Positions 40,602-62,118 of a DNA stretch of 64,000 nucleotides are shown here, piece by piece. The position numbers were made by a program, and so were the translations under genes. The DNA is from an uncultured Bacteroidota bacterium. Lineage in GTDB: Bacteria; Bacteroidota; Bacteroidia; JABEUT01. The stretch is from NCBI GenBank assembly GCA_903863935.1, contig CAIPDV010000042.1, positions 68,869-132,868 of the forward strand. The letters are read 5' to 3'. The notes beneath the pieces were generated by a model. It was not told the DNA's origin and ran no database searches. It saw only the letters and a program-made list of their open reading frames with translations. Each line of letters opens with the position of its first letter. Position 1 is the stretch's first letter.

Positions 40602-41738
40602 TCAGACTTTTGTTTTTACGACTTCAAACCTGTCCTTCATTCTCAGGAATGGTTTTTCAAAGAATTCGTAGGAAAGAATTGATATAATAATTGTAAACAT
40701 CAGGGTGGATAAGTAGAAAACCAAATTCATTTGCCATCCACCTAAGCCACGCCCAAATAATCTTTCTGTAAATGCAAGGCAAAATATCCGCAGGATAGCA
40801 CTGTACAAATACAATCCATAGGATATCTTACCGAGGTAATTGGTCCATTTAAAATCAAGTTTTATAACTGAATTGGGATTTGCCGCAAGGTTTATAATGA
40901 TGAAACAAAAAAATAGTGAATAGAATTCAAAATAAATAAATGGCACCCGGATATTAAAAACTAGCAAGAGTAAAGTAACTATATAGACACCCCATTGCAA
41001 ATCCTTTCGAAAAAGGGTCTTTAAAATCTTATCCTTTTCTGCAACCACTAAATAAGCACCTATTCCACCAATGGCCATACAACTCAGACGATAAAATGAA
41101 ATGATCTTTTGAAAATGCCTCAACCAGGGTGACAGATGCAAGACACGACAAAAAAATCCATACCCGTTACGAATCAGCAACACGGAAATTATAACTAATA
41201 CAAAAACCTGAACATATTTTTTGGTTCTTCTTAAAAGAAAAGGTTCCATAAAATAAAACACCTCCTCTACCCTTACAGACCATGTTGCGCCAATAGCCCT
41301 TAATGTTATTCCGATGGGAGGAATAAATAAAAGGCAGAGGAAAAAGTCAATATTTTTATACGGAGAATCAACTCCCAAATCATCAATATTCATTTTTTCA
41401 CCCAGGTAAGGAAGTATGAAAAAACCGATTATGATCACTAAGTAATAGAGCGGCCAAATCCTTAATGCTCTTCGCATCAAATACTTTTTAATGTTGATGT
41501 CCCCAGTATCCATTTTCTCTTTCAATAATAAATAGCCAATGAGAAAACCACTTAAAACAAAAAACAGGGATACATCCAAACCACCAATTGGTAAATAGGA
41601 TTTTACCCATAAATGCGGCTCCTTTCCATGAAGCACTTTCAGCTCTTCGTTATGCAGAATAATAAGAATTAATGAACCAACCAAACGGAGTCCGTCGAGA
41701 TTTGGGAAGTGTACTTTATCCTTTACAACTCCATCCAT
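40602..41738 (-). CDS. Acyltransferase family 3 (OatA/OafA-like) membrane O-acyltransferase, copy a
   Basis: N-terminal FPNLDGLRLVGSLILIILH motif and about 10 TM helices. It is a paralog of 51723..52910. Confidence 0.75.
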   Translation of the reverse strand: MDGVVKDKVHFPNLDGLRLVGSLILIILHNEELKVLHGKEPHLWVKSYLPIGGLDVSLFFVLSGFLIGYLLLKEKMDTGDINIKKYLMRRALRIWPLYYLVIIIGFFILPYLGEKMNIDDLGVDSPYKNIDFFLCLLFIPPIGITLRAIGATWSVRVEEVFYFMEPFLLRRTKKYVQVFVLVIISVLLIRNGYGFFCRVLHLSPWLRHFQKIISFYRLSCMAIGGIGAYLVVAEKDKILKTLFRKDLQWGVYIVTLLLLVFNIRVPFIYFEFYSLFFCFIIINLAANPNSVIKLDFKWTNYLGKISYGLYLYSAILRIFCLAFTERLFGRGLGGWQMNLVFYLSTLMFTIIISILSYEFFEKPFLRMKDRFEVVKTKV

Positions 41739-41739
41739 C

Positions 41740-42495
41740 TTAACCCTTGAAAAGATTATAAATTGGCTTGCCTATAATAACAATCATCATAACAAAGCCA
41801 AAAAGAAGGGTTTTCATAAAAACAGGCATCTTGTTAATTATAGTGGTCTTATTATAGATGTAGGAAACGTGTCGGGCAAGTATGGATGCACAAATCAAAG
41901 TCTTTTTATTCATAAATTCCGGCCGGATAACATCCATAATAATTATAATACGTCTTTTGTCTGTATTGTTCCATGCTGAATGCTTGTAGGCATCGTTAAA
42001 TATCAGACATTTCCCATTTTCCCAACTTTGTGATTCGCCATTTACCTTAAATCCGCATTCTGGTAAAACCCCTGGAATTTCAATACCGATATGGCAACGC
42101 ATAATTCCATTTGTATCACCTTCGTGCTCTCCTATTTTTGAATTTGCACTTAGCCTGCTTATAGTTACCGAGACAAGCCCCGGAATTTGTTTTAGTAGCT
42201 TATCCATTTTGGGACATTTCTTATCAAACTCATTTGAAATTTTAAGTCCCCAGAAAAGTGATGTAATCGCACTCCAGCTTTTTGCCGTATCTAATCCGCC
42301 GTAAAAAGTTGCAGTTGAAACAAATTTATCGTCTTTTTCTTTAATAAAGTTGCTGATCTCCTCCTGCCAGGCAGGCCAGTTGTCTTCCAAAGCCATAGCC
42401 CACGGGAAATCCTTCACCTTAAAATACCAGGGCTCATTTCCCGGGTAAGGTCGCCTGCTTGAACCATACCACAATTGTTTCTTTCCGACTTCCAT
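41740..42495 (-). CDS. Aspartyl/asparaginyl beta-hydroxylase-family (LpxO/OlsC-like) Fe(II)/2OG dioxygenase with a C-terminal TM anchor
   Basis: Similar to PF05118-type sequences (WYFKVKDFPWAMALEDNWP...HEGDTNGIMRCHIGIEIPG). Hydrophobic C-terminus. Confidence 0.6.
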   Translation of the reverse strand: MEVGKKQLWYGSSRRPYPGNEPWYFKVKDFPWAMALEDNWPAWQEEISNFIKEKDDKFVSTATFYGGLDTAKSWSAITSLFWGLKISNEFDKKCPKMDKLLKQIPGLVSVTISRLSANSKIGEHEGDTNGIMRCHIGIEIPGVLPECGFKVNGESQSWENGKCLIFNDAYKHSAWNNTDKRRIIIIMDVIRPEFMNKKTLICASILARHVSYIYNKTTIINKMPVFMKTLLFGFVMMIVIIGKPIYNLFKG

Positions 42496-42594
42496 TACTT
42501 GACCTATTATTGCACAAATATAGAGTAATATGGTGCTCTTTAACCGGGCATTACTCCTTAATTGAATTTATATGCTTTAGTATCTTTGTGACGG

Positions 42595-43638
42595 ATGAAT
42601 GCACAAGTTTCATTATATACAACGGAAGAAATTGAAAGGATAAAAAACACGCCGATGTTTTTTGTTTTGGGTAAAGAACGTTCCGGGACAACATTATTGC
42701 AACTGATGCTTAATGCTCATGCAAACATTATTGCTCCGCCTGAATCAAGGTTTATTATTCTTCTCTATTTCAGATATGGAAAAACAAAAAAATGGACGGA
42801 ACAAATAATTTCTTCCCTGTGCGATAATCTTTTTGAAGAGGGCCTATTTCGTGATTTTTGGGGCATTGATAAACAGCAATTGAAAAATCAATTAATTACT
42901 GCAAAGGATATGCTTACCTTCTCTTTACTTTGCAAAATAATTTTCCGGATTTCAGCCCCCGGCAAAAATGAAGTACGGATATTTTTCGATAAAAATCCTT
43001 TATACTATTACTTCCTGCCGGAACTAAATAAAATTTTTCCGGAAGCGAAATATCTCCACTTGGTTCGCGATTATAGGGCAAATTTGGTAAGCCACCGCAA
43101 AGTATTTACTGTAAAAAAAGGTACGGATATTGCATTCCGCTGGATGAAAGTAAATATGCTGGTGGAAGAGGCAAAGAAAATGGCTCCACAAAATTATTTT
43201 ACGCTCACCTATGAGTCGCTTGTGGGTAGTCCTGTCGATACTCTAAGTAAAGTCTGCCTGTTTCTGAATCTACCCTTTGATGAAAACATGGTTCAGAACC
43301 ATCAGTCAGGCATGTATTCAAAATTCAACAGCAATAAAAAAGAAGGATTCTTAAAAGTTCATCAAAATGTATTTAATCCAATAAATCCGTCTCTCATAAG
43401 CGAATGGAAAGAAAAAATTCCAAAAGAGGAATTAATGAACGTGGAAGCAGCAGTTGGTAACTTTGCAAAGTCGATGTATGGTTATGAATTAATATTTCCT
43501 GAAAAATCAGGGAATAATCCTAACGGCTTTTTTATGATGAACCTAAAATATAAAGCCATTAAATCCCTTTATCGGAAAGCATTAGCCAACTTATGGCTTT
43601 ATCGTAATATCAAGAAATATGTATGGGGAGGTTTTTAA
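42595..43638 (+). CDS. PAPS-dependent sulfotransferase (Sulfotransfer_3-like), ST1
   Basis: 5'-PSB motif GKERSGTTLL and 3'-PB motif VRDYRANL. Confidence 0.8.
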   Translation: MNAQVSLYTTEEIERIKNTPMFFVLGKERSGTTLLQLMLNAHANIIAPPESRFIILLYFRYGKTKKWTEQIISSLCDNLFEEGLFRDFWGIDKQQLKNQLITAKDMLTFSLLCKIIFRISAPGKNEVRIFFDKNPLYYYFLPELNKIFPEAKYLHLVRDYRANLVSHRKVFTVKKGTDIAFRWMKVNMLVEEAKKMAPQNYFTLTYESLVGSPVDTLSKVCLFLNLPFDENMVQNHQSGMYSKFNSNKKEGFLKVHQNVFNPINPSLISEWKEKIPKEELMNVEAAVGNFAKSMYGYELIFPEKSGNNPNGFFMMNLKYKAIKSLYRKALANLWLYRNIKKYVWGGF

Positions 43639-43648
43639 TCTCTTTCAA

Positions 43649-44701: not shown

Positions 44702-44744
44702 AACAAAGCTAAGCTTTTCCTGACTTTATGAATTCCAAATGAGC

Positions 44745-45782
44745 TCAAAGGCCATAACCTTTCAAATAATTTTTCCGGTAATACGAATTGAACTTATACC
44801 AATTATACCTTGCTTTTGTAAATCCCTCCCAAAGAGCGTAAACAACTTTCGTTTTAAATAATCTATATGCAGAAATATGCTTATTGGGTTTTGATTCACC
44901 CAGTAAATAGCCATATTTTTCTTTGGCATATTTGCCTGTAATATTTTCAGTAACTGCCAAATCATATTCATCAAGTTCAGTCTTCCATTTGCCAATATTA
45001 GAGGCATTAATTGGCTTTAAAAGGCTCTCATGAATTTCTTTATATCGTTCAAATATTGCCTCTTCCTTCAAATTTTCAACATTTTCTGCGAACTTATTTT
45101 TCATTATTGAATTATCATATGGCACATTCAGAAATTCGCATAATAATTTAAAAGTATCGTTAGGATTGGTCACCATCTTCTCGTAAATAACCGTAATAAA
45201 TTGTTGCGGAAATTGCTCTTTCACCTTTTCAATTGCTTGATTCAGACCAACCCACTGCCGGGAAATAAAAAACGTATTTTTCTTTTTCAATCTTTTAATA
45301 TGTCCGTTTATAACATCCCTGGGATCCCTAATTATATGTATGAATCTGGCTTCAGGAAATATCCCGAGAAGCTTATTTGCAAAATAAGAATTCCGAGGAT
45401 CTTTATCCGAGATAAGCAATATGTTTTCTTTATTATTTTTCTTTTGAAGGAAAACAATTTTGCAAGCAAGTTGATAATTTAAACCTTCCCTTAATCTTAT
45501 TAGCTCTTCAAAGAGATTTGCTTTATTCAAAAGCCAGATTTTTGATATTCGCGGAAGACTGAAAAGATCTTCAACAAAATCGTGAACAGTTTTTTCAGTC
45601 CACCTTTTTATCCCTCCAAACTTCGGATACAAAAACAGAATAAAATCGCTTTCCGGCGGGCCCACAATCTGCGGATGTGAATCAAGCATTTCCTGCATTA
45701 AGGTAGTACCGGAACGGCTGCTTCCCAAAATAAAAAGCATTGGTAACTTTTCAATTTCACTGCTCGTAATCCCTTCATTCAT
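44745..45782 (-). CDS. PAPS-dependent sulfotransferase, ST3
   Basis: GSSRSGTTLM and IRDPRDVI. A 4-bp overlap with the upstream GT2 gene implies translational coupling. Confidence 0.8.
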   Translation of the reverse strand: MNEGITSSEIEKLPMLFILGSSRSGTTLMQEMLDSHPQIVGPPESDFILFLYPKFGGIKRWTEKTVHDFVEDLFSLPRISKIWLLNKANLFEELIRLREGLNYQLACKIVFLQKKNNKENILLISDKDPRNSYFANKLLGIFPEARFIHIIRDPRDVINGHIKRLKKKNTFFISRQWVGLNQAIEKVKEQFPQQFITVIYEKMVTNPNDTFKLLCEFLNVPYDNSIMKNKFAENVENLKEEAIFERYKEIHESLLKPINASNIGKWKTELDEYDLAVTENITGKYAKEKYGYLLGESKPNKHISAYRLFKTKVVYALWEGFTKARYNWYKFNSYYRKNYLKGYGL

Positions 45783-46894
45783 CGTGATAAATATTTAATT
45801 AAAAAATAAACCCCGATTGAAATAAATAGATAGGCAAAGAATTTTATAGCTGCCCAAAATCGTTGATAGTTAATATTTTTTCCATTGCAAAAGAAATCAA
45901 ATCGCTTACTAATCCCTTGAAAAATCGTAAATTTTTGGAATTGCATTTTTAATCTTCCATAATCTATTGCTGCTCTTACCCATATAACCTCATGCGTGAA
46001 TTTGCTTTTGCCTAACCCTCCACTCTTCTGCAACCTCATAAACTCCACAATAAATTCTCCTGCAAGCACTCCGATAGAAACACAAAGAATTGGAAGGAAT
46101 GAGTGGATGCAAAAACATACAATTAAGGTAAGTGGGAGGCCAACAAGGAAACACTCCACCATATTGGGAAATGTATAAAACGAATATTGAGGAAATTTTT
46201 GCATTAAAATTGCTGCACCTCCGTTAACCCTTATAAACCTTGAATAATCTCTCTTCCCTTTATTCCACCAATCGTGATAAACAGGAGTATTGGTAAGGCA
46301 TTGCAATTCCTGCTTCGTATTATTATAAATCCGGAGAAAAAAATCAGCTTCCTCACAGGCTCCCCGTTTATCGTATATTTCCAGAAAACGGACATCGCCT
46401 ATTGCGGAGCGCTTTACAACCACATTAGCTGTAGCAGCACATTTTGAATGCTCACGCAAACGGGCCACAGAAAATCCTGCCAGAATACTACCGGCACGCA
46501 AACCTGCGGTGAAACTATTTATGGATTCGGGAAATATAACTTCTCCTAAAAACCCAACCTCTCCTGGCCTTTCAATGATGGCCTTTAAATAGTTTATCAG
46601 TAAATCTTTAGGTGGCTTTACATCATCATCCAAAAACAAAATCCAATCGGCCGTTGATTTATCAATACCGATATTCCTTGTTTTGCTTACTCCATAATTA
46701 GCTTCATTCGCAATTAGGATAACTTTATCATTGTCGACCTGTGTTGCAAAATCTGCCGGTATTTTGCCCTGCGGGTTATCAGAAATTATCAGAAACCTGA
46801 CTTTCGCTTCACTGGGAATATCCATGCTTACTATGGCAGTGAGATATTCACTTTGCAAACGGAAAGAAGGAACTATAACATCCAATGAAACCAT
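45779..46894 (-). CDS. Glycosyltransferase family 2 with a C-terminal membrane region, GT2-a
   Basis: N-terminal VSLDVIVPSFR and the DxD-type motif ILFLDDDV. Two to three C-terminal TM helices. Confidence 0.7.
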   Translation of the reverse strand: MVSLDVIVPSFRLQSEYLTAIVSMDIPSEAKVRFLIISDNPQGKIPADFATQVDNDKVILIANEANYGVSKTRNIGIDKSTADWILFLDDDVKPPKDLLINYLKAIIERPGEVGFLGEVIFPESINSFTAGLRAGSILAGFSVARLREHSKCAATANVVVKRSAIGDVRFLEIYDKRGACEEADFFLRIYNNTKQELQCLTNTPVYHDWWNKGKRDYSRFIRVNGGAAILMQKFPQYSFYTFPNMVECFLVGLPLTLIVCFCIHSFLPILCVSIGVLAGEFIVEFMRLQKSGGLGKSKFTHEVIWVRAAIDYGRLKMQFQKFTIFQGISKRFDFFCNGKNINYQRFWAAIKFFAYLFISIGVYFLIKYLSR

Positions 46895-46964
46895 ACTTAA
46901 CTATTCCCCAAAAGTAAATAAAATTAAGGAATAAATCTATTTGTGAAACCCACCTGAACTCCCG

Positions 46965-47900
46965 CTATTTAAGTAGGGGCGAATTGTAATTTTTCAAGAT
47001 CTCATCATTCAGTATTTTACTGAATTTGATCGCGCCATCCTTATTAAGATGTGTTACTTCCCTGAAGTCTTCGTCTGTAAATCTTGAATCGGTATGGTAA
47101 TCATACTTCCTGCAACTATAAATTGAACACAACCCATTTATTGCACTATCAATGGTTTTCATCCTGTTCTTATCTAAATATTTATTATAAAAATGGTTGT
47201 AAGGCGCAATAAAAAACACCGGTTCAATATTGCGTTTCTTCAATTCCCCGATAAATATTTTCAGATCGCTAATGTTATCTGCAAAATTTTCCTGCTTCAT
47301 TTCCTTTTCATGAGCTTTGGCAAGATTATACCCGGCCGAATCATTCAAGGGGCCTTTCTTTCCGCCAATAGCCCAACCGTTTTCCTGATAGCCTCTTTCA
47401 AGATCAGTACTAAATCCACTTAGGGCAAAATTCCAGGCTTTTTCATTTCCATACGCCAATATTTTACTGTATAAATGGATATCATACCACTTGATTGAAG
47501 GATACCGAATACCCCATTCCCTGGCATAAAAATAATCGCGAAATGGTTCATCGCATGTATGTACCTGGAACCAAAAACTTGGGTAAGAAATATCGATGAG
47601 TACCACTTTTAGCGAGGTCATTTTATCCAGATACTTCAAGGTTATTCTGGTATCATAATAAATTGACTGCTGAATATTTGCAACGTTATATCCCTTCATT
47701 GAAAAACAATCAGGGTCAACCCCTCTTAGCGAGTGGGAAGGGCCAAGCACAAGCACTTCTATCTTTGGAGCCAATGACTCAAGATGTTCCCTTTTCATTG
47801 AATAACTATCGGGCATGCGACTCAATCCATACTCCCATGCAGCAATAAATCCACTGATGGGGATGAGAAAAATAAATAATCGAATTACAAATTTTTTCAT
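46965..47900 (-). CDS. MBOAT-partner protein (DltD/AlgX/AlgJ-like SGNH-type, DUF1574-like)
   Basis: N-terminal anchor, 311 aa. Immediately downstream of the MBOAT gene and abutting it (47900/47901). Candidate catalytic residues VLVLGPSHS ... D..H (TDEDFREVTHLN). Confidence 0.45.
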   Translation of the reverse strand: MKKFVIRLFIFLIPISGFIAAWEYGLSRMPDSYSMKREHLESLAPKIEVLVLGPSHSLRGVDPDCFSMKGYNVANIQQSIYYDTRITLKYLDKMTSLKVVLIDISYPSFWFQVHTCDEPFRDYFYAREWGIRYPSIKWYDIHLYSKILAYGNEKAWNFALSGFSTDLERGYQENGWAIGGKKGPLNDSAGYNLAKAHEKEMKQENFADNISDLKIFIGELKKRNIEPVFFIAPYNHFYNKYLDKNRMKTIDSAINGLCSIYSCRKYDYHTDSRFTDEDFREVTHLNKDGAIKFSKILNDEILKNYNSPLLK

Positions 47901-54053: not shown

Positions 54054-55127
54054 TTAAGATTTTTGTGCGGCTTCTTGCTCAGCTTTATCTTTCAAATATT
54101 TGTCCAAATTACCATATTCCGCTAAATGTACAAGGTTTATATCCTTTTTATACAGTGAATATGACTTCCAAAATGGAGGATTGGTGGCCAGCATATCCAG
54201 GAACATATATAGCGGAGCTATTTTGAATGAATATAATGGCGGCAGCCAGCGATAACCGACCCCAATTGAGTCAGTATTGTTCCTGACACAATGCCAATAA
54301 AATGGAGGATTCCAAAGAACATCACCGGGATGAAGATGTACAGAAAGCCCATCAATATATTTATAAAGAGAGTAAGGTTTTTCATAGTCCGGATTAAATG
54401 GGTCGAATTGCCCTATATCATTTCTCTTAGGCCCATTACGGTAAACATTGCGAACTGGATCGGGGTCAATTATCATCGTATGATATTGCGAGTATAAAAT
54501 CCATTCCTTTTCTCCATAGACCTGAACAAAGAGATTGCATTGGTTCGCGTTATGCAAATCGGTTACAGAGCCTTTCCCCCCAATAAATACCTGGAATGCT
54601 TCAAACCATGTCCTTGGGTTTCTGCGTTCGCGCAACCATTTATAATCGAAATCTTTTAAATGCTCCGGATGCCTGTCCAGCAATGGATAGAAACGATAGT
54701 ATTTGCTGCCACCCGAACGGATATTATCGATAACATTTCCCAATGTTGTCTCTTCGTAAGGATAGCCCGGTTTATCTACTTCAACCCTAACAATCTTATC
54801 ATCTCCATGAAGGTCTTTAAAGTATTCTAGCGACCATTTTTTAACACAATCCCAATCTTTTGCTGCACCTTCCAAAACTACGGGAATACCTTTTTTAACG
54901 TATTCGTTGATAAACTCCTCTTTGCTTAAATTGGCTCTCCTCTGAATAGGTATTATTTTCCCTTCTCCACTCTTTTTAAGTGTTTCCGTAAGGTTTTTGT
55001 AAAATTTCTTCCTTCGCTTCCCAAGGAGTTTAAATACCCTTTTCCTTCCAATAAATTGGTCTAATATCTGATAAAACCCATACTCAATACGCTGACTTGT
55101 TTTAATATTTCTCCTGAAATCCCCCAT
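54054..55127 (-). CDS. Cupin-like/JmjC-domain protein (putative Fe/2OG hydroxylase), copy b
   Basis: 357 aa. Begins MGDFRRNIKTSQRIEYG..., nearly identical to the N-terminus of copy a. Confidence 0.5.
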   Translation of the reverse strand: MGDFRRNIKTSQRIEYGFYQILDQFIGRKRVFKLLGKRRKKFYKNLTETLKKSGEGKIIPIQRRANLSKEEFINEYVKKGIPVVLEGAAKDWDCVKKWSLEYFKDLHGDDKIVRVEVDKPGYPYEETTLGNVIDNIRSGGSKYYRFYPLLDRHPEHLKDFDYKWLRERRNPRTWFEAFQVFIGGKGSVTDLHNANQCNLFVQVYGEKEWILYSQYHTMIIDPDPVRNVYRNGPKRNDIGQFDPFNPDYEKPYSLYKYIDGLSVHLHPGDVLWNPPFYWHCVRNNTDSIGVGYRWLPPLYSFKIAPLYMFLDMLATNPPFWKSYSLYKKDINLVHLAEYGNLDKYLKDKAEQEAAQKS

Positions 55128-55248
55128 TTGAACAGCATTTATAAATACAAATGTAAAATAAAAACATAATTTATCACGTTAGTAGCCAAAAGCCTACCTT
55201 TTAAGCTGTGTATGGAAAATATTAACTTTGTGAAAATTACGTAAACAA

Positions 55249-56250
55249 TTGGGCGCTTATATTAAAGCTGTGAGTTATTATATGCCTGAAAAGGTTCTTA
55301 CCAATGAGGAATTATCGGTCATATTTCCTGAATTCAGTACCGATGAAATATTCAGAAGATCGGGAGTAAGAACACGTCATATTTCTGCTGAACATGAACT
55401 TGCTTCAGATATGGCTGTTGTTGCAGCGGAAAAATTGTTTTCGGAAAGTAGCATTCAAAAAAACGAGATAGGCTTTACTCTTTTTTGTGCTGAAATTTTA
55501 GATAGAACCGCACCTGCAACAGCTTGTATTTTGCAAAACAGAATCGGGCTTCCTAAACAATCTGGTGCAATGGACATCCCCATGGGATGTTCAGGCTTTA
55601 TGTATGGGTTATTATTAGCAAAATCTTTGGTTTGCAGCAATGCAGTCGACAACGTTCTTTTACTCACCGGGGAATGTGAAACCAAAACAATACACCCGGC
55701 TGACCATGAACTGCGTATGATTTTCGGAGATGGCATGGCAGCAACCATTATTAGCCGTAATGAAGATAATTCGATTGGTGATTTTGTAATTGGAACAGAT
55801 GGTAGTGGTTGGGAAAATTTAGCAGTAAGAGGCTGCAATGCCAGAGAATTAGCTAGCGTAGAGTGGCTAAAAGAAAATGAGAGTGCAGGTGGTATGCCTT
55901 ATGGAAGGCTTACTATGAATGGAACAGAAATACTTAATTTCACCCTGAAAAACGTGCCAAAAATGGTGAACGAAGTATTGGAAAAAGAGAAACTGACAAT
56001 GGACAATATCGACCTGGTTATTTTTCACCAGGCAAGTGGGTTTATGTTGGAAGTATTGAGAAGAAAAATGAAAATACCTAAAGAAAAATTCTTTACCAAT
56101 ATTGCAGAAAAAGCGAATACCGTTTCAGCAACTATACCCATCGCATTGCGCGATGCAATGGATGCAGGCCTTGTTAAAAAAGGGAATAAAGTTTTGCTCG
56201 CAGGCTTCGGTATTGGTTATTCATGGGGTGCTACAGTTATTACAATTTAA
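55249..56250 (+). CDS. 3-oxoacyl-ACP synthase III family (FabH-like KAS III), copy a
   Basis: Active-site Cys in MGCSGFMYGL. His and Asn regions are present (IFHQASGFM; N-T-x-S-A-T). Confidence 0.8.
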   Translation: MGAYIKAVSYYMPEKVLTNEELSVIFPEFSTDEIFRRSGVRTRHISAEHELASDMAVVAAEKLFSESSIQKNEIGFTLFCAEILDRTAPATACILQNRIGLPKQSGAMDIPMGCSGFMYGLLLAKSLVCSNAVDNVLLLTGECETKTIHPADHELRMIFGDGMAATIISRNEDNSIGDFVIGTDGSGWENLAVRGCNARELASVEWLKENESAGGMPYGRLTMNGTEILNFTLKNVPKMVNEVLEKEKLTMDNIDLVIFHQASGFMLEVLRRKMKIPKEKFFTNIAEKANTVSATIPIALRDAMDAGLVKKGNKVLLAGFGIGYSWGATVITI

Positions 56251-56261
56251 TAAGAAGATAT

Positions 56262-56504
56262 ATGGGGATAGAAGATCTACTAAAACAATTACAAGCAGAA
56301 TTTGAAGATATTCCTGCAGGAACTTTAAAACCCGAAACTAAAATTTCTGATATTGAAGGCTGGGGTTCCATGCACGCATTGATAGTTATTGCGCTTGCCG
56401 ATACCGAATATGGCGTTACGATAAAAGGTGATGAACTCCGCAAAGTACAATCGGTTCAGGAATTATATGATTTGATAATTGAAAAACAAAAAAATCCGGA
56501 GTAA
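56262..56504 (+). CDS. Acyl carrier protein (about 80 aa)
   Basis: A helical protein of about 80 aa with a putative phosphopantetheine Ser in DIEGWGSMHAL. The ATG at 56262 avoids overlapping the FabH gene. The ORF-track start at 56223 is rejected. Confidence 0.6.
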   Translation: MGIEDLLKQLQAEFEDIPAGTLKPETKISDIEGWGSMHALIVIALADTEYGVTIKGDELRKVQSVQELYDLIIEKQKNPE

Positions 56505-56510
56505 GTAAGT

Positions 56511-57566
56511 ATGGCATTTTTCTCGGTTGAAAATATTCGCATTAAAGGTATTGGCGCAGCCGTTCCTAAGAAAGAAATTTCTAATTGGGATTATACCTAC
56601 ATTTCAGAGTCGGACAGAAAGCTACTAATAAAAACAACAGGTGTTGAGAAGCGCAGATCTATTGGTGATAGCGGAGTAACTGAAACCGACCTTGCCAAAG
56701 CGGCTGCCGAAAAATTACTTATTGAAACCGACACACTTAAAGACGAAATTGAAATTTTAGTTTTTGTTTCTCAAACTCCCGATTACTTTTTACCTGCCAG
56801 TAGTATATTGTTGCAAAACCGATTGGGGCTAAAAAAGAGCTGCATGGCTTTTGATATTAACCTTGGGTGCTCCGGATATGTATACGGACTCTCTGCTATC
56901 AGTTCAATAATGAGCAGTGGCAAGTTCAAAAAAGGTCTTTTATTAGCAGGCGACACGTCTACCATTGGAACACCCTGGGAAGATAAAAGTGTTTATCCTT
57001 TGTTTGGAGATTCAGGCACTGCTACTTTGCTTGAATATGATGAAACAGCCGGAAAAACTACCTTCAGCCTGAATTCGGATGGTTCCGGATATGAGGCTAT
57101 TATTGTGCGAGACGGGGGGACAAGAAGCCCCTATACCAAGGAATCGTTTGAAATAAAAGAAAGAAATCAGGGAGTACTTCGTGCTGACCGCAACCTGGAA
57201 CTAAACGGGATGGAAGTGTTCAATTTTTCAGTAACTGTGGTACCAAAACACCTTGATGAATTTTTACAGAAGACTATTACAACTCCTGATTCATACGATT
57301 TTTTTGTAATGCACCAGGCCAATTTGCTTATGAATGAAACCATCCGGAAAAAATTAAAATTTCCTCCCGAGAAAGTCCCTTATTCCATACAAAAATTTGG
57401 TAATACAAGTTCGGGGTCCATTCCTCTAACCATAGTTTCTGAATTGAAAGATAAGGTTGCAGGTGAAAAAAATTTCCTGATGTCAGGCTTTGGAGTTGGC
57501 TTGTCATGGGCCACTGTTTCTCTGAAAACTAATAACTTAATTTGCACCGATATTGTTGAAATATAA
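56511..57566 (+). CDS. 3-oxoacyl-ACP synthase III family (FabH-like), copy b
   Basis: NLGCSGYVYGL active-site Cys, FVMHQANL His region, NTSSGS Asn region. Confidence 0.75.
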   Translation: MAFFSVENIRIKGIGAAVPKKEISNWDYTYISESDRKLLIKTTGVEKRRSIGDSGVTETDLAKAAAEKLLIETDTLKDEIEILVFVSQTPDYFLPASSILLQNRLGLKKSCMAFDINLGCSGYVYGLSAISSIMSSGKFKKGLLLAGDTSTIGTPWEDKSVYPLFGDSGTATLLEYDETAGKTTFSLNSDGSGYEAIIVRDGGTRSPYTKESFEIKERNQGVLRADRNLELNGMEVFNFSVTVVPKHLDEFLQKTITTPDSYDFFVMHQANLLMNETIRKKLKFPPEKVPYSIQKFGNTSSGSIPLTIVSELKDKVAGEKNFLMSGFGVGLSWATVSLKTNNLICTDIVEI

Positions 57567-57568
57567 GA

Positions 57569-58318
57569 ATGACTACGCCGTTTCATCTAACCAATAAAAC
57601 TATATTTATTACCGGTGCATCATCCGGCATTGGCAGGCAGATTGCCATTTCCTGTAGTGCAATGGGGGCAAAAGTTATTATCAGCGGGCGAGATGAAGAA
57701 AGGTTGAATGAAACCCTTGCATTACTTCAGGGAGAAGGGCATTCACAGTTTACTTCAGACTTGACAGATGAAAAACAACGCAATGATTTAATTGACCTGA
57801 TACCAGGTATTGATGGCTTTGTTCACTCTGCAGGAATAGTTCTTCCTGTTCCTGTTAAATTCATTGCAGAAAAACATTTGAGAAGCGTGATGGGAATTAA
57901 TTTTGAGTCTGCAGTGCTTACAGTAGCAAGGCTTCTCAAAAATAAAAAGCTGAATGAAAAAGCTTCGTTGGTTTTCTTTTCTTCTGTTTCGGTAAATCAT
58001 CCGTATAGTGGAGGTTCATTGTATACCGCATCCAAAGGGGCCATTGAAGCATACAGTAAAAACCTAGCACTTGAGATCTATCAAAAGAAAATGCGTTCGA
58101 ATGTAATTGTCCCTGCAATGGTAAGAACCCCCTTATATGAGGAAACCATTAACCAGGGCATGTACAGAAATGTTGAAGAATATGAAAGCAAATATCCCCT
58201 TGGAATAGGAAGACCCGAAGATGTTGCAAATGCGGCGGTGTACCTGCTTTCAGATGCATCGTGCTGGGTGACCGGAACAAATTTATTACTGGATGGTGGA
58301 TTTACAATTGGCAAATAA
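57569..58318 (+). CDS. SDR-family oxidoreductase (FabG-like 3-oxoacyl reductase)
   Basis: TGASSGIGRQIA Rossmann motif, YTASKGA catalytic YxxxK. 249 aa. Confidence 0.8.
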   Translation: MTTPFHLTNKTIFITGASSGIGRQIAISCSAMGAKVIISGRDEERLNETLALLQGEGHSQFTSDLTDEKQRNDLIDLIPGIDGFVHSAGIVLPVPVKFIAEKHLRSVMGINFESAVLTVARLLKNKKLNEKASLVFFSSVSVNHPYSGGSLYTASKGAIEAYSKNLALEIYQKKMRSNVIVPAMVRTPLYEETINQGMYRNVEEYESKYPLGIGRPEDVANAAVYLLSDASCWVTGTNLLLDGGFTIGK

Positions 58319-58329
58319 AAACTGTTGAA

Positions 58330-59259
58330 ATGGCTGAACAACCAAAAAAAATATCGATTGTAATTCCGGTTTATAATGCTTCTACAGTTTTGATAGAACT
58401 GCAAAAAAGGATTGACGGCGTTTTTAAAGAAATTAATATTCCTTACCAACTTGTTTTGGTAGATGATTGTTCCAGAGATGACAGTTGGAGCGTAATTAAG
58501 GAAATAAAAAGCCAATTTCCTGAAAACATTACCGCAATAAGGCTTGCCAAAAATTTCGGCCAGCATAATGCTATTGCATGCGGCTTTCATTATTGCTCCG
58601 GTGATTATATAATTACAATGGATGACGACCTTCAGCATCCGCCGGAAGAAATACCAAAGCTCATAAAAAAAGCTACTGAAAATGGTGCTGATGTAGTATA
58701 TGGTATATCAGATAAATACAAAAGGTCTTTGCTTAGAAATACAACAAGCATAGTATTTAAAGTTACCACGAAATATACTTCTGCCAGCACAGGTAATGGC
58801 TCTCCATTCAGGATAATCAAGAAAAGTATTGTAAAAAAAATCATCACGCACAATCAGCAATTTGTTTTTATTGATGAACTTATTTCATGGTACACCAAAA
58901 ATATTGAATTTGTGGTGGTAGACCATAAAGCCTCCGGTCTTAAAGCCTCACGTTACTCTGGTTATAAATTGATGAACCTTTACTTTAATTTGGTGTTCGG
59001 GTACAATGCCCTGCCATTGCGATTAATAACTTATCTGGGTCTTATTGCATCCTTCATTTCATTTTTAGTAGGGCTTTTCTTTTTTATCAAAAAGATGTTT
59101 TTCAATGTCAGGGTAGGATTTACCGGTATAGTTGTGAGTATAACTTTTACAGCTGGTATAATTCTCCTTAGCATTGGCGTTATTGGCGAATACATGCGCA
59201 GAATGTATAACATTCTTAATGCTCAGCCGCAACATTCAATCGGCGAAATTTTAGAATAA
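58330..59259 (+). CDS. GT2 glycosyltransferase of the polyprenyl-phosphate sugar synthase type (ArnC/GtrB/DPM1-like) with two C-terminal TM helices, GT2-b
   Basis: ISIVIPVYNAS, VLVDDCSRDDS and ITMDDDLQHPP motifs, plus two C-terminal TM helices. ATG at 58330 (MAEQPKK) is chosen over the ORF-track start at 58261. Confidence 0.75.
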   Translation: MAEQPKKISIVIPVYNASTVLIELQKRIDGVFKEINIPYQLVLVDDCSRDDSWSVIKEIKSQFPENITAIRLAKNFGQHNAIACGFHYCSGDYIITMDDDLQHPPEEIPKLIKKATENGADVVYGISDKYKRSLLRNTTSIVFKVTTKYTSASTGNGSPFRIIKKSIVKKIITHNQQFVFIDELISWYTKNIEFVVVDHKASGLKASRYSGYKLMNLYFNLVFGYNALPLRLITYLGLIASFISFLVGLFFFIKKMFFNVRVGFTGIVVSITFTAGIILLSIGVIGEYMRRMYNILNAQPQHSIGEILE

Positions 59260-59260
59260 C

Positions 59261-59938
59261 ATGCTTATCCGCAAGTACGGAATCACCCTTAAAAGACTCA
59301 AGGAAGAGGATATTGAACTTGTGCGTGAAATGCGTAATTCTACTGTTATTTCAAGAACCATGGCTTATCGGGAACACATTACTCCTGAAATGCAGAAAAA
59401 GTGGTTTGAATCCATCAATAATAAATACAACGGATACTTTATAATTGTTTATGAGGGGAAAAAAATAGGCCTGATAAACGGCAAAAATATTGACTTTGAA
59501 AAAAGATGCTGTGAAGGCGGGATTTTTATCTGGGATGAACATTATAAAAACACAATTGTTCCCGGGCTGGCTTCCATAATCATGAACGATTGGACCTTCC
59601 TCATCATTAATTTTAATGTCATTTATGCGAAGGTTCTTCAAGAAAATGGCAATGCACTCACATATGACAAACTGATGGGATACGAGCCATGCCAGCCTCT
59701 GACAGATGAAAAAGGGGTGCAATGGCTAAAACTTACAAAGGAAAATTATTTACGAAAAGTGAAATTACTGCGAAAAAGTTTCCTGCAAAACTTTGGTGGG
59801 GTTGAACCATTGACACCCCTCGATGTTGATGCATCAGATGATTTGGGTAAAGAAATTAACCTCTTCTATACAGGACTCCCAACCGATATTCAGGAAAAAG
59901 CAGATGAGTTGCTGGAAAGAGCAAGAAGTAAGTCATAA
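59261..59938 (+). CDS. GNAT-family (RimL-like) N-acyltransferase
   Basis: N-terminal ITLKRLKEEDIELV is typical of RimJ/RimL-type GNATs. 225 aa. Confidence 0.4.
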   Translation: MLIRKYGITLKRLKEEDIELVREMRNSTVISRTMAYREHITPEMQKKWFESINNKYNGYFIIVYEGKKIGLINGKNIDFEKRCCEGGIFIWDEHYKNTIVPGLASIIMNDWTFLIINFNVIYAKVLQENGNALTYDKLMGYEPCQPLTDEKGVQWLKLTKENYLRKVKLLRKSFLQNFGGVEPLTPLDVDASDDLGKEINLFYTGLPTDIQEKADELLERARSKS

Positions 59939-60021
59939 TTCCTAAATATTCTTAATTCTTCCCTTCTACTTCTTAATTTTTGTGTCTTATTACTACATTT
60001 GCAGTTTAACCACAAGCGGAT

Positions 60022-62118
60022 ATGCCCCAGACCATGACAGCTAAAAGTGAATCGGTTGGTTCTGTACCTGTAAATTCTGTAATCAGAGCATTTGAACTCA
60101 TGTGCACGGCCAAGGCTATGACTGAGATATTTGAAAAGAATGCTGCTGTTACAAGTAAATATGTTCATGCCACTTCCCGCGGACATGAAGCCATACAAAT
60201 TGCATTGGGCTTGCAACTGAAGCCACAGGATTACCTAAGTGCTTATTATCGCGATGACAGTATTCTTCTTTCAATTGGAATGACACCATATGAGCTTATG
60301 CTTCAATTAATGGCAAAAGCTGATGACCCATTCTCCGGTGGAAGAACCTACTATTGCCACCCAAGTTTGCGAAGGGATAATATGCCTAAAATTCCGCACC
60401 AGTCCTCGGCGACAGGAATGCAGGCCATACCCACAACAGGTATAGCCATGGGAATTCAATACCAGGAAAAAAGAGGACTGCTTCCTTCCTATGAAGATGG
60501 AAAACCAATCGTAGTTTGTTCGTTGGGAGACGGCTCTGTTACCGAAGGTGAAGTAGCAGAAGCTTTTCAGATGGCGGTTTTGAAAAAACTGCCGATATTA
60601 TATTTAGTGCAGGATAACGATTGGGATATTTCAGCAACCGGCAAAGAAACCCGTGCCATGGATGCAGTGGAGTATGCAAAAGGGTTCAAAGGGCTGGAAA
60701 CACGCAGCATAGATGGCACCGACTTTATGCGCAGCTATCAAACCTTGCGCGAGGTTATCCATACCATTCGTGAAGAACGCAGACCGTTTTTAGTTCATGC
60801 AAAAGTGCCATTGCTTAACCACCACACCTCAGGTGTACGTAAAGAATGGTACCGGGCAGATCTGGAAGAAGCAGCAAAACGCGATCCATATCCGCGACTA
60901 AGAAGCCAGCTTTTAATTGCAGGCTTCACACAGGATAAGATAAAACAAATTGAAGCAAAAGAAACCGCCGCAGTTGCAGAAGCTTACGAAATGGCCCTTA
61001 AAGCTGCCGATCCAAAACCGGAAGATCTGTTCAAACATGACTTTGCACCAACCCCAGTTACAGAAGAAAAAGGAGTACGTGAACCTGAAGGCGGAGAAAA
61101 AAAGGTAATGGTTGATTGTGCTCTTTTTGCTATAAGGGAATTGATGGAAAAACATCCGGAGTGCTTATTTTATGGCCAGGATGTTGGAGGACGCCTTGGT
61201 GGCGTATTCCGCGAGGCAGCTACCTTGGCCCAGCAATTTGGTGACGACAGGGTATTTAATACGCCTATACAGGAAGCATTTATTGTCGGTAGTACAGTAG
61301 GTATGTCGGCTACTGGCTGCAAACCCATTGTGGAAATTCAATTTGCCGATTATATATGGCCCGGACTTAACCAGTTATTTACAGAAGTAAGCCGCTCCTG
61401 TTATCTGACAAACGGAAAATGGCCCGTGAGTTGTATTATCCGTGTACCCATTGGTGCGTACGGCAGCGGCGGACCATATCACTCTTCAAGTGTAGAGTCT
61501 GTATTAACCAATATCCGGGGAATTAAAATTGCTTATCCTTCAACGGGAGCTGACTTAAAAGGCTTGCTGAAATCCGCCTACTATGACCCGAATCCGGTAG
61601 TGATGCTGGAACACAAAGGTCTTTATTGGTCGAAGATAAAGGGAACTGAAGATGCAAAAACGGTAGAACCGGATGCCGATTATATTATTCCATTTGGGAA
61701 AGGCCGAATCGTTCAAAGTGCTGAGGCGTCACAAACCCTTAAAGGGGCTTCCACTGTAACTGTAATCACCTATGGTATGGGAGTTTATTGGGCACAAAAT
61801 GCTGCTAAAAACTTCCCGGATAAAGTAGAGATCATTGATCTGCGAACACTATATCCATTGGATGAAGAACTGATTTTTTCTTCTGTAAAAAAACACAGCC
61901 GTTGCATCGTACTTACGGAAGAACCTGTTAACAATGGCTTTGCACAATCCATTGCTTCACGCATACAGCAAAATTGTTTTGAATATTTGGATGCTCCGGT
62001 TACCGTAATTGGTTCTGAAAATATGCCGGCAGTTCCACTTAATACAATTTTAGAACAAACCATGTTACCTAATGCCGGCAAGGTTTCTGTAGCCATTGAA
62101 AAAATTTTAGCCTACTAA
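60022..62118 (+). CDS. 2-oxoacid (branched-chain alpha-keto acid) dehydrogenase E1 component, fused alpha/beta subunits
   Basis: 698 aa. ThDP-binding GDGSVTEGE...NDWDIS in the N-terminal half and a transketolase-like beta domain in the C-terminal half. Confidence 0.8.
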   Translation: MPQTMTAKSESVGSVPVNSVIRAFELMCTAKAMTEIFEKNAAVTSKYVHATSRGHEAIQIALGLQLKPQDYLSAYYRDDSILLSIGMTPYELMLQLMAKADDPFSGGRTYYCHPSLRRDNMPKIPHQSSATGMQAIPTTGIAMGIQYQEKRGLLPSYEDGKPIVVCSLGDGSVTEGEVAEAFQMAVLKKLPILYLVQDNDWDISATGKETRAMDAVEYAKGFKGLETRSIDGTDFMRSYQTLREVIHTIREERRPFLVHAKVPLLNHHTSGVRKEWYRADLEEAAKRDPYPRLRSQLLIAGFTQDKIKQIEAKETAAVAEAYEMALKAADPKPEDLFKHDFAPTPVTEEKGVREPEGGEKKVMVDCALFAIRELMEKHPECLFYGQDVGGRLGGVFREAATLAQQFGDDRVFNTPIQEAFIVGSTVGMSATGCKPIVEIQFADYIWPGLNQLFTEVSRSCYLTNGKWPVSCIIRVPIGAYGSGGPYHSSSVESVLTNIRGIKIAYPSTGADLKGLLKSAYYDPNPVVMLEHKGLYWSKIKGTEDAKTVEPDADYIIPFGKGRIVQSAEASQTLKGASTVTVITYGMGVYWAQNAAKNFPDKVEIIDLRTLYPLDEELIFSSVKKHSRCIVLTEEPVNNGFAQSIASRIQQNCFEYLDAPVTVIGSENMPAVPLNTILEQTMLPNAGKVSVAIEKILAY

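Follow-up and report, generated by a model that had tools for sequence, protein, structure and literature searches.

We analyzed a 64,000-nucleotide stretch of DNA from an uncultured Bacteroidota bacterium (lineage JABEUT01; contig CAIPDV010000042.1), hereafter called the window, and examined the 20 back-to-back open reading frames (ORFs) that span window positions 40602-62118 in the ORF listing. In the reading that we favor, to which we give about an even chance, this span is a hypervariable island for the modification of a surface glycoconjugate. Its center would be an Arn-like pathway for an N-(hydroxyacyl) aminosugar linked to polyprenyl phosphate, and the product would be oxidized, possibly halogenated, sulfated, and O-acylated outside. 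The proteins fall into known families and keep intact catalytic motifs, the core genes are co-localized in many related genomes, and the island has a variable architecture. The original prediction for this span, made from the window alone, had left a choice between a new sulfated lipid or glycolipid and a surface-glycan modification system; surface-glycan modification fits our results best, and a lipid pathway is less likely.

The six-gene operon and its conserved partners

Families were assigned by Pfam and NCBIfam profile searches, with equivalog cut-offs from NCBIfam, and this analysis reproduced the 20 contiguous genes and every family assignment of the original prediction. Related loci were obtained by scanning an alignment of Cupin_8 proteins against one genome per species, which yielded 75 distinct loci (designated L plus a number) that were mapped with the window proteins; in total, 80 or more related loci were compared. 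These comparisons revealed a recurrent operon in the order FabH1-ACP-FabH2-SDR-GT2b-GNAT, comprising two β-ketoacyl-ACP synthases III (KAS III), an acyl carrier protein (ACP), a ketoreductase (KR) of the short-chain dehydrogenase/reductase (SDR) family, a family-2 glycosyltransferase (GT2), and an N-acyltransferase of the GCN5-related (GNAT) family. FabH2, GT2b, and GNAT lay within 10 kb of a Cupin_8 gene in 27 of the 75 loci, nearly all of which kept the full order. Sulfotransferases were encoded in 21 of these 27 core loci, AspH-like oxygenases likewise in 21, and a membrane protein with tetratricopeptide repeats (TPR) in 19. The hosts were Vicingaceae, Parvicellaceae, Crocinitomicaceae, Flavobacteriaceae (Mesonia aquimarina, Haloflavibacter putidus, Aureitalea), Acidiluteibacter ferrifornacis, Saprospiraceae, and Chitinophagales. 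Copies per locus ranged from 1 to 5 for Cupin_8 (five genes in L013), from 1 to 5 for sulfotransferases (five domains in the window and in L087), and from 1 to 3 for AspH. The core conserved across Bacteroidota families therefore consists of the six-gene operon together with Cupin_8, AspH-like, and sulfotransferase paralogs.

These counts bear on the possibility that the span is a set of scattered, unrelated operons that are adjacent by chance. The island comprises at least six transcription units on alternating strands, and the dehydrogenase E1 gene at its right end is unrelated to the rest. The conservation of the neighborhood, which had been proposed as a check, is real, however: the same families occur together in 21-27 of the 75 independent loci, from several Bacteroidota families and in part from a gammaproteobacterium, with the six-gene order kept. 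Chance adjacency is thus extremely improbable. The genes of the span are as follows.

40602..41738, minus strand: AT3a, integral-membrane acyltransferase-3 (AT3) of the OafA/Oac type (PF01757, E 6.8e-24), with approximately 6 or more hydrophobic segments
41740..42495, minus strand: AspH/LpxO/OlsC-family Fe/2-oxoglutarate (2OG) oxygenase with a C-terminal membrane anchor (PF05118, E 6.9e-36)
42595..43638, plus strand: ST1, sulfotransferase of the 3'-phosphoadenosine 5'-phosphosulfate (PAPS) type (PF13469, E 3.5e-28), with a 64% identical ortholog in L012
43649..44701, minus strand: ST2, PAPS-type sulfotransferase (PF13469, E 9.5e-34), C-terminal hydrophobic segment 302-325
44745..45782, minus strand: ST3, PAPS-type sulfotransferase (PF13469, E 6.6e-32)
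45779..46894, minus strand: GT2a, family-2 glycosyltransferase (PF00535, E 1.9e-10) with C-terminal transmembrane (TM) helices (242-288, 346-370)
46965..47900, minus strand: DltD-like exported partner of the next enzyme, with an N-terminal signal anchor (PF04914, E 8e-07, C-terminal part only)
47901..49340, minus strand: membrane-bound O-acyltransferase (MBOAT) of the DltB/AlgI type (PF03062, E 2.8e-23)
49551..50624, plus strand: ST4, PAPS-type sulfotransferase (PF13469, E 3.7e-36)
50665..51726, plus strand: ST5, PAPS-type sulfotransferase (PF13469, E 9.4e-29)
51723..52910, minus strand: AT3b, integral-membrane acyltransferase-3 (PF01757, E 7.6e-25)
52923..54014, minus strand: Cupin8a, JmjC-fold Fe/2OG enzyme with a non-canonical H-x-A...H motif (PF13621, E 9.4e-22)
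54054..55127, minus strand: Cupin8b, JmjC-fold Fe/2OG enzyme with a non-canonical H192-x-A194...H279 motif (PF13621, E 8.7e-28)
55249..56250, plus strand: FabH1, KAS III, first gene of the putative acyl-sugar operon (PF08541/PF08545; NF006829, 3.6e-77)
56262..56504 (likely; listed ORF from 56223), plus strand: dedicated ACP, 80 aa (weak PF00550)
56511..57566, plus strand: FabH2, second KAS III, 351 aa (PF08541/PF08545)
57569..58318, plus strand: FabG-like classical SDR, ketoreductase (PF13561, E 4.7e-44)
58330..59259 (likely), plus strand: GT2b, polyprenyl-phosphate glycosyltransferase of the ArnC/DPM1 type (PF00535, E 2.3e-32)
59261..59938, plus strand: GNAT, PseH-like N-acyltransferase (PF13302/PF13420; TIGR03585 PseH, 1.6e-16, below cut-off)
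60022-62118: fused E1 alpha/beta dehydrogenase (best NCBIfam matches, models of pyruvate dehydrogenase E1, below cut-off)

The catalytic residues of the operon proteins were conserved throughout. The triads of FabH1 (C114/H260/N290) and FabH2 (C120/H268/N298) were retained in 30 and approximately 30 orthologs, respectively, and the two enzymes are 34% identical to each other; the ACP serine in its W-x-S-M motif (30 orthologs), the SDR triad S139/Y152/K156, and the DDD121-123 motif of GT2b (approximately 30 orthologs each) were also retained. The ACP is called as 80 aa on identical contigs. GT2b is listed as an ORF from 58261, and the ATG at 58330 yields the 309 aa found in its orthologs; its C-terminal TM region covers residues 250-312. 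It matched the ArnC model NF007986 (1.6e-55, 188 bits against a cut-off of 529) and the PgfS model (2.2e-39), both below cut-off, and is predicted to be the same type of enzyme as ArnC rather than an ortholog. GNAT always adjoined GT2b in the 27 core loci.

Genes for a dehydratase, an enoyl reductase, or KAS I/II (FabZ, FabI, FabF) were absent from every related locus examined, so that a short acyl chain that retains its hydroxyl groups is likelier than a fatty acid. A precedent exists in Flavobacterium psychrophilum, where synthesis of a 3,5-dihydroxyhexanoyl group and its transfer to UDP-Qui2NAc4NH2 of the O-antigen have been proposed for wfpC-wfpG (PMC6519341). In that cluster WfpC (KAS III) has 333 aa, WfpD (ACP) 76, WfpE (KAS III; 33% identical to WfpC) 350, and WfpF (KR) 242, and wfpG encodes an acyltransferase (PMC6519341); the window block follows the wfpC-F order with 333, 80, 351, and 249 aa for FabH1, ACP, FabH2, and SDR. 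Given the missing enzymes and the parallel with wfpC-F, the dedicated fatty-acyl synthesis for a lipid that had been proposed earlier is less likely than a short polyol-acyl group on an aminosugar.

A free sulfated (glyco)lipid or aminolipid would use the same genes differently. The FabH enzymes would extend a long or branched acyl-CoA to 3-hydroxyacyl-ACP, GNAT would acylate the nitrogen of an amino acid or amino alcohol in the manner of OlsB and of N-acyl amino acid synthases, the OlsC/LpxO-like and Cupin_8 enzymes would hydroxylate the chains, the AT3 and MBOAT enzymes would add piggy-back acyl groups, a GT2 would add a sugar, and the sulfotransferases would make the resulting membrane lipid multiply sulfated. 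Lipids can be acylated by AT3 and MBOAT enzymes, and there are KAS III enzymes that take long-chain primers. The membrane anchor of the AspH-like protein (TM segment, residues 222-249) and the hydrophobic or amphipathic C-terminal tails of several window sulfotransferases also speak for a lipid. The best NCBIfam match of the AspH-like protein was OlsC (1.1e-32), followed by LpxO (9.3e-23), both of which act on lipid acyl chains; however, the respective scores of 113 and 81 bits are far under the equivalog cut-offs of 450 and 500, and the protein is a PF05118 member that is an ortholog of neither. Further evidence against a lipid comes from the other genes: GNAT resembles the sugar N-acetyltransferase PseH and not OlsB, FabZ, FabI, and FabF are missing from every locus, and the E1 gene lies beside the operon in 2 of 27 loci only. 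In addition, the conserved partners (ArnC-type GT2, TMTC/PMT-like GT-C glycosyltransferase, DegT, and Wzx or ABC flippases) follow the logic of glycan assembly. We consider a free lipid unlikely.

Several of these partners occur in related loci. The TPR protein has 630-690 aa, with 7-11 N-terminal TM segments, an invariant DD right after TM1, and C-terminal TPR repeats. When the N-terminal domains were compared with Pfam, 11 of 19 matched TMTC_DUF1736 (best 3e-06) and 3 of 19 matched PMT_2 (best 1e-06), the matches being weak and mostly sub-threshold; a profile of the membrane domain had no match among PDB sequences even at E 10. From the Pfam matches, the protein appears to be a GT-C glycosyltransferase of the PMT/TMTC clan. 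Enzymes of this type use polyprenyl-phosphate sugars, the product of ArnC/DPM1-type GT2 enzymes, which makes the TPR protein a natural partner of GT2b. A DegT/DnrJ/EryC1 sugar aminotransferase was encoded in the clusters of L069, L074, L078, Aequorivita sp. H23M31, and a gammaproteobacterial metagenome-assembled genome (MAG). Wzx-like MOP or ABC exporters were encoded in the clusters of L012-L014, L060, L087, L034, L064, and L085, and in L012-L014, L060, and L087 a Wzx-like MOP protein (PF01943) lay in the same island. The most compact arrangements were found in L085 (Aequorivita), with a TMTC-like GT-C, FabH-ACP-FabH-KR-GT2-GNAT, two sulfotransferases, DegT, and an ABC exporter, and in L084 (gammaproteobacterium), where the six-gene operon is accompanied by DegT, a sulfotransferase, a dioxygenase with the canonical H-x-D, and a polytopic protein of 598 aa. 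Both lack Cupin_8 and AspH and keep sulfotransferase and operon together, which suggests that sulfation is tied to the acyl-sugar module and that the oxygenases are add-ons.

Additional genes were noted around these partners. In L084 (7623-8738), a 371 aa protein with a canonical H-S-D...H motif and no Pfam match on record occupies the slot of the Bacteroidota Cupin_8/AspH genes. A small lipoprotein of 103-122 aa, with an S/T-rich linker and the motif EIPADFPKY...W.K.N, is encoded near the TMTC-like GT-C in seven loci (L062 14471-14788, L061 15259-15576, L053 11762-12073, L054, L019, L068, and L004 19998-20351), in several of them directly upstream; it could be an acceptor or partner of the GT-C. 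Seven loci (L061 9364-9900, L019, L053, L054, L056, L059, and L062) encode an SRPBCC/polyketide-cyclase-like protein of 175-181 aa (PF10604, weak) between GNAT and Cupin_8, which is absent from the window. In L005 (12891-15344), a MAG of marine Flavobacteriales, the genes close to a Cupin_8 pair encode a PIG-L de-N-acetylase of 817 aa, a GNAT, and a TMTC-like GT-C, with no FabH operon, an arrangement that hints at a deacetylate-then-reacylate route to the aminosugar. Finally, a polytopic protein of approximately 540 aa is encoded directly beside Cupin_8 (L004 8385-9986 and 6412-8037; L038/L082 8298-9962); it belongs to no Pfam or NCBIfam family and has no homolog in the window. It is the only partner of a Cupin_8 ortholog in 23 of the 75 loci, and some Cupin_8 orthologs stand alone. 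No match to the TPR GT-C, memA/memB, PIG-L, or unk510 proteins of related loci was found in the window by tblastn.

Sulfotransferases and oxygenases

Alignment of the five window sulfotransferases with three from L004 revealed three invariant elements. The 5'-phosphosulfate loop R29-S30-G31-T32-T33-L34 (RSGTTL) aligns with PRSGSTLL of CurM-ST; E50, in a PPE motif, aligns with the PPE of CurM-ST; and R158, in a VRDxR motif, is the 3'-phosphate Arg. We take E50 to be the catalytic base, as in the CurM-ST and TPST structures. Loss of the PAPS-binding residues had been named as an observation that would undermine the assignment, and we found loop, Glu, and Arg kept in all five proteins, which are only 35-37% identical to ST1. 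The solved relatives nearest to ST4 were CurM-ST (1.1e-13), TPST1, and the olefin-synthase sulfotransferase. CurM-ST, from the curacin pathway, sulfates a β-hydroxyacyl-ACP. The N-terminal parts of the sulfotransferases also matched the carbohydrate sulfotransferase NoeE in NCBIfam.

We also compared the number of hydroxyl groups expected per locus (two from the KR, plus the AspH and Cupin_8 copies) with the number of sulfotransferases. The two numbers agree in the window (5/5) and in Aequorivita (2/2) and differ in L004 (6/3) and L063 (7/2). This stoichiometry was rejected as support for hydroxylation and subsequent sulfation of the acyl chain, as it fails in most loci.

Three Fe/2OG-type hydroxylases had been predicted in the span. 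The family assignments were confirmed, but the label of hydroxylase is unsafe for the two JmjC/cupin proteins, which lack the carboxylate ligand. Cupin8a and Cupin8b are a tandem duplicate (73% identical). An AlphaFold model of Cupin8b (pLDDT 90.1, pTM 0.90) was compared with the PDB using Foldseek, and the leading match was JMJD5 (E 9e-19, target TM-score 0.80-0.86), followed by FIH, JMJD7, and TYW5; the predicted fold is a double-stranded β-helix of the JMJD5/FIH clade. In a HMMER alignment with JMJD5, H192-N-A194 of Cupin8b corresponds to H321-Q-D323 and H279 to H400. Alanine thus stands at the position of the Asp323 ligand, and neither window Cupin_8 protein has a 2-His-1-carboxylate triad. 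N198 and K207 do not vary among 138 family members. In the JMJD5 alignment they fall on a conserved Asn and Lys, and we take them to bind 2OG as in the FIH (N205, K214) and JMJD5 structures.

The substitution is a property of the subfamily. Among the 138 homologs in the loci, the carboxylate position was A in 115, S in 13, E in 6, G in 2, and N in 2, with the two His, the Asn, and the Lys invariant. An exhaustive search of 1.84 billion representatives retrieved 143 clusters of the Cupin_8 subfamily at E<=1e-30 (50% identity). Their 127 full-length representatives had A (80), G (17), E (15), D (8), or S/N/V/T (7) at this position, so that about three quarters (97/127) carry H-x-A/G...H. Paralogs with H-x-E stand beside H-x-A paralogs in L013 (16314-18502), L014 (10733-12899), and L060 (2903-5082), which indicates that the canonical position is in use where an acid residue is present. 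The AspH-like protein, by comparison, has the 2-His motif H124-x-G126...H172 that is typical of its own family and was conserved in 36 homologs.

H-x-A/G...H is the signature of Fe/2OG halogenases of the SyrB2, CurA-Hal, WelO5, and BesD type. From their motifs, we tentatively suggest that the Cupin_8 proteins could be halogenases of a new kind, a possibility that falls well short of an even chance. Likewise well short of an even chance is the composite in which they would be the first JmjC-fold Fe(II)/2OG halogenases, chlorinating or brominating an ACP- or sugar-bound polyol-acyl chain that the paralogous sulfotransferases later sulfate. Two caveats apply. The structure of the FIH variant D201G (3d8c) was among the related PDB entries found by Foldseek, and this variant reportedly still hydroxylates. 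The AspH family is naturally 2-His and yet hydroxylates (PMC10947486). No description of a JmjC-fold or Cupin_8 halogenase was found in open-access papers or bioRxiv. If the composite holds, the Bacteroidota surface would carry a halogenated, polysulfated acyl-aminosugar, assembled via undecaprenyl phosphate and a TMTC-like transferase, and chlorosulfolipid-like chemistry would take place on a glycoconjugate. Members of the large H-x-A/G JmjC subfamily could be C-H halogenases or 2-His hydroxylases of an atypical sort, and are of interest for biocatalysis.

The characterized relatives of these enzymes raise the question of a peptide or protein substrate, of the RiPP (ribosomally synthesized and post-translationally modified peptide) lipopeptide type or of the hydroxylation/sulfation type. 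The JMJD5/FIH-like and AspH-like enzymes would hydroxylate residues of the substrate, the TPST-like enzymes would sulfate Tyr or hydroxylated residues, GNAT would lipidate the substrate with the ACP-bound acyl group, and the TPR domains would bind it. JMJD5, FIH, JMJD7, the tyrosylprotein sulfotransferases, and AspH all modify proteins, hydroxylase-plus-sulfotransferase operons acting on co-encoded proteins have been predicted in bacteria (Iyer et al. 2010, PMC2938197), and the small S/T-rich lipoprotein lies beside the TPR GT-C in 7 loci. In contrast, no precursor-sized ORF was found in the span: the largest gap is 210 bp (approximately 260 bp if ST4 uses a later ATG) and holds random-looking ORFs of 24-41 aa with no conserved counterpart. 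Clustering of the unassigned ORFs of >=70 aa in 28 loci likewise gave no conserved small ORF within the core. There is no protease, cyclase, RiPP recognition element, or peptide exporter, the oxygenases and sulfotransferases have no signal peptides whereas plausible protein targets are exported, and the TPR protein is a probable GT-C glycosyltransferase. We regard a peptide or protein substrate as very unlikely.

A variable island at a fixed chromosomal site

L012, L013, and L072 carry the island at the same chromosomal site as the window. The site is flanked by valS, a hypothetical gene, and a phosphoribosyltransferase (PRTase) gene on one side and by E1, orf187, and a gene for a secreted TPR protein on the other. 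The closest genomes are the uncultured Bacteroidia MAGs L012 (Umea_bin-09912), L013, and L014, and the island proteins are present in identical form on 10-12 metagenomic contigs. Both ends of the island are conserved. AT3a marks the left end, and its orthologs (67-79% identity) adjoin the PRTase gene at the same end in L012 and L072. Cupin8b-Cupin8a-AT3b and the FabH operon form the other end, with AT3b orthologs (54-59% identity) directly after the Cupin_8 pair in L012, L013, L015, and L016; AT3a and AT3b are 47% identical. The interior differs. In L012, a Wzx-like flippase, a GT4, and a PF00685 sulfotransferase replace the AspH, ST2, ST3, GT2a, DltD-like, and MBOAT genes of the window, and the L087 island has a GT2a homolog (46%), a Wzx-like gene, and an AT3 besides its five sulfotransferase domains, three Cupin_8, and two AspH.

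Identity to relatives was 92-94% for E1, 75-96% for FabH2, and 43-64% for the sulfotransferases, with island genes overall at 43-79%, and the GC content of the island was 0.369, compared with 0.402 for valS and 0.44 for E1. A fixed site, a varying interior, and a lower GC content are characteristic of variable loci for surface polysaccharides or serotype. The reported lack of NRPS, PKS, Wzx, Wzy, and Wza genes in the span was borne out, with a Wzx-like flippase in the same island of close relatives. Repeat scans revealed no insertion sequence elements or repeats bounding the island, and the only results of the Rfam and repeat scans were a tRNA-Lys gene and the Cupin_8 tandem duplication. A promoter and terminator scan of 40000-59999 was set aside as uninformative; its counts equaled those of shuffled sequence, and the sigma-70 consensus is not applicable to Bacteroidota.

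The 20 genes are not the single unit that had been assumed but a conserved core, lineage-specific accessories, and a flank. The fused E1 had been read as a branched-chain 2-oxoacid dehydrogenase that supplies primers to FabH. Synteny lends this no support: E1 was adjacent in 2 of the 27 operon-carrying loci, both close relatives, and its high identity, higher GC content, and rare adjacency mark it as a conserved flank gene and not island cargo. No E2 or E3 dehydrogenase subunit was encoded in the window. The accessories are the two AT3 genes, GT2a, and the MBOAT/DltD-like pair; among the 75 loci, GT2a was found in 0, the DltD-like gene in 0, MBOAT in 1, and AT3 in 7. The MBOAT matched the DltB model TIGR04091 (7e-43, 147 bits against a cut-off of 375, hence below cut-off), and the DltD-like protein, with a hydrophobic N-terminal segment (1-26), matched TIGR04092 DltD (9.7e-05). 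A GT2a homolog (54%) also occurs alone in a conjugative/integrative element (TraG/TrwB-like, ArdC, resolvase) at L086 10001-11119, on 36 contigs, which suggests that the GT2a type is also mobile. The homolog P0402 was discarded as a guide to function, as its context is a conjugative element with nothing else of the system there.

The contrast between conserved operon and varying interior can also be explained by two separate functions that are co-located. The operon would then make an ordinary N-(hydroxyacyl) aminosugar on undecaprenyl phosphate, and the tailoring enzymes would act on sugars in a larger, lipid-linked glycan, be it an O-antigen, a capsule, or a protein O-glycan, the acyl chain being left untouched by the sulfotransferases, Fe/2OG enzymes, GT2a, and O-acyltransferases. 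Tailoring enzymes do outnumber the capacity of a C6 acyl chain, as an island can have as many as 5 Cupin_8 proteins (L013) or 5 sulfotransferase domains; in relatives, sulfotransferase genes are interspersed with GT4/GT2 genes and one for a Wzx-like flippase; and the NoeE match of the sulfotransferases points to a carbohydrate. However, the minimal modules of Aequorivita and the gammaproteobacterium hold their sulfotransferases tight to the operon with no other glycan genes, there is no Wzy, Wzz, or initiating transferase, and CurM-ST, the closest solved relative, acts on a hydroxyacyl-ACP rather than a sugar. Two separate functions are unlikely, though less so than a free lipid, and we continue with the single modification pathway on a surface glycoconjugate.

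Several features outside the island were recorded. At 38979-40418, between the PRTase gene and AT3a, the window has an insertion compared with L012 and L072: a gene for a cargo protein of the type IX secretion system (T9SS) that carries a Por_Secre_tail and six GloVer 'choice-of-anchor' repeats. Genes for T9SS cargo are also neighbors of the cluster in L004, L005, and L087, perhaps simply because they are abundant. Two further T9SS-secreted proteins of 1359 and 1233 aa (7357-11436 and 11497-15198), with SprB repeats, PKD, NHL/teneurin, and β-propeller domains, resemble gliding adhesins. A sulfur-handling cluster at 4284-7144 encodes YeeE/Sulf_transp, a TauE/SafE exporter, and a SoxA/TsdA-type dihaem cytochrome c; YeeE/Sulf_transp is split over overlapping ORFs (4284-4772 and 4706-5269), possibly by a frameshift. 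A HEPN_Swt1-like protein (weak, 1.2e-05; 15581-16951) lies near the only tRNA gene of the window, tRNA-Lys UUU (17826-17899), in a stretch with a GC content of 0.35.

Proposed pathway and comparison with known systems

In the pathway that we favor, FabH1, ACP, FabH2, and the ketoreductase would make a short 3-hydroxy or 3,5-dihydroxy acyl-ACP, whose hydroxyl groups would be kept as there is no dehydratase or enoyl reductase. The Cupin_8 (2-His JmjC-type) and AspH/LpxO-like Fe/2OG enzymes would hydroxylate, or possibly halogenate, further C-H positions, and the cytoplasmic, membrane-leaning PAPS sulfotransferases would sulfate hydroxyls of the acyl chain and/or the sugar. The PseH-like GNAT would N-acylate a nucleotide aminosugar with this acyl group, and the ArnC-like GT2b would pass the acylated sugar to undecaprenyl phosphate. 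After flipping, a GT-C enzyme, which in most other genomes would be the TMTC/PMT-like protein with TPR repeats that the window lacks, would move the sugar to a periplasmic or outer-surface acceptor (protein or lipopolysaccharide (LPS)/glycan). In this lineage, AT3a, AT3b, and the MBOAT/DltD-like pair would add O-acyl groups outside, and GT2a would add another sugar. We infer the order of these steps, the length of the acyl chain, the position of the sulfates, and the identity of the acceptor.

A number of observations weigh against this pathway. Missing from the 64-kb window are a TMTC-like GT-C, DegT, and a flippase (tblastn and Pfam analysis of all large ORFs), an initiating phosphoglycosyltransferase, and the PAPS-synthesis genes cysDN and cysC. 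The nearest GT-C gene, and the only one that the window has, is of the GT87 family (22609-23841; PF09594, 4.8e-18); it lies 17 kb off, with an RmlD-like reductase gene (20903-21823) close by. The correspondence of the window FabH block to wfpC-F is one of gene order, sizes, and domains, and orthology is putative. Five sulfotransferases, three O-acyltransferase systems, and three oxygenases exceed the plausible needs of one N-acyl monosaccharide, and oxygenase and sulfotransferase copy numbers show no correlation across loci. Cupin_8 orthologs that are alone or paired with the approximately 540 aa protein suggest that the substrate may be a common envelope molecule and not an ACP-bound acyl group. 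Moreover, protein-modifying enzymes are among the nearest characterized relatives of the Cupin_8, AspH, and sulfotransferase proteins.

The combination of genes had matched no pathway that the original prediction could name, and we found no description of this cluster or of sulfated N-acyl sugars of this type in searchable open-access papers or bioRxiv. If our reading is correct, many uncultured and some cultured Bacteroidota would bear a strongly anionic, sulfated acyl-aminosugar, the carriers being Aequorivita, Mesonia, Haloflavibacter, and Acidiluteibacter together with MAGs of Vicingaceae and Saprospiraceae, and the route would merge fatty-acid-synthase-like, Arn-like, and O-mannosylation-like logic. 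To our knowledge, sulfated surface structures of bacteria are rare. A sulfated surface is relevant to recognition by phages and predators, metal binding, and contacts with algae and animals, and its varying gene content at a fixed site makes the island a candidate serotype-like determinant.

Comparison with known systems revealed partial likenesses. A Wzx/Wzy O-antigen or capsule cluster differs in that Wzx, Wzy, a chain-length regulator, and an initiating transferase are absent from the window, and neither Wzy nor an initiating transferase was seen in the window or related loci. The operons predicted by Iyer, Aravind et al. in 2010 (PMC2938197) contain 2OG enzymes of the β-hydroxylase family, sulfotransferases, and acetyltransferases, and share the logic of hydroxylation followed by sulfation. 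They carry PhyH-methyltransferase fusions, PAPS synthetases, and collagen-like or tail-collar protein substrates, and they lack a FabH/ACP operon, an ArnC-like GT2, a GT-C, and H-x-A Cupin_8 paralogs (PMC2938197). In the O-acylation pairs AlgI/AlgJ-AlgX, PatA/PatB, and DltB/DltD, an MBOAT adjoins an exported DltD-like partner, as it does here; however, no DltA/DltC, AlgF, or AlgX is present, the scores are sub-equivalog, and the pair belongs to this lineage only (0-1 of 75 related loci). Curacin A biosynthesis (CurA halogenase, CurM sulfotransferase) likewise combines an Fe/2OG enzyme that lacks the carboxylate ligand with a PAPS sulfotransferase, and both act on ACP-tethered hydroxyacyl intermediates. 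The CurA halogenase has a SyrB2/PhyH-type and not a JmjC fold, and CurM-ST is a domain of a polyketide synthase in which sulfate serves as a leaving group, whereas the island has no polyketide synthase and five free-standing sulfotransferases.

Three further systems were compared. Protein O-mannosylation (DPM1/Ppm1 with PMT/TMTC) also couples a polyprenyl-phosphate sugar synthase of the GT2 family to a GT-C, and TMTCs carry C-terminal TPR repeats; here the system would be bacterial and periplasmic, probably with an N-acyl aminosugar in place of mannose, and the GT-C is missing from the window. The wfpC-wfpG genes of F. psychrophilum show the same order of KAS III, ACP, KAS III, ketoreductase, and N-acyltransferase with near-equal sizes. 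Their acyltransferase is PglD-like (left-handed β-helix) whereas that of the window is a GNAT; they belong to an O-antigen cluster of the Wzx/Wzy type that has a PglC-type initiating transferase and lacks sulfotransferases and oxygenases, whereas the window block is joined to an ArnC-type GT2; and their function is itself predicted (PMC6519341). The Arn (Pmr) system for lipid A aminoarabinose shares the logic of DegT aminotransferase, N-acylation, ArnC-type GT2, and periplasmic GT-C, of which the aminotransferase and GT-C are found in related loci and not in the window itself. It differs in that its N-acyl donor is formyl-tetrahydrofolate, used by ArnA, whereas the donor here would be a hydroxyacyl-ACP used by GNAT, with no ArnA or ArnD, and in that the GT-C of the related loci is TMTC/PMT-like with TPR rather than ArnT. 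With the sulfotransferases and Fe/2OG enzymes added, the product here would be anionic, not cationic.

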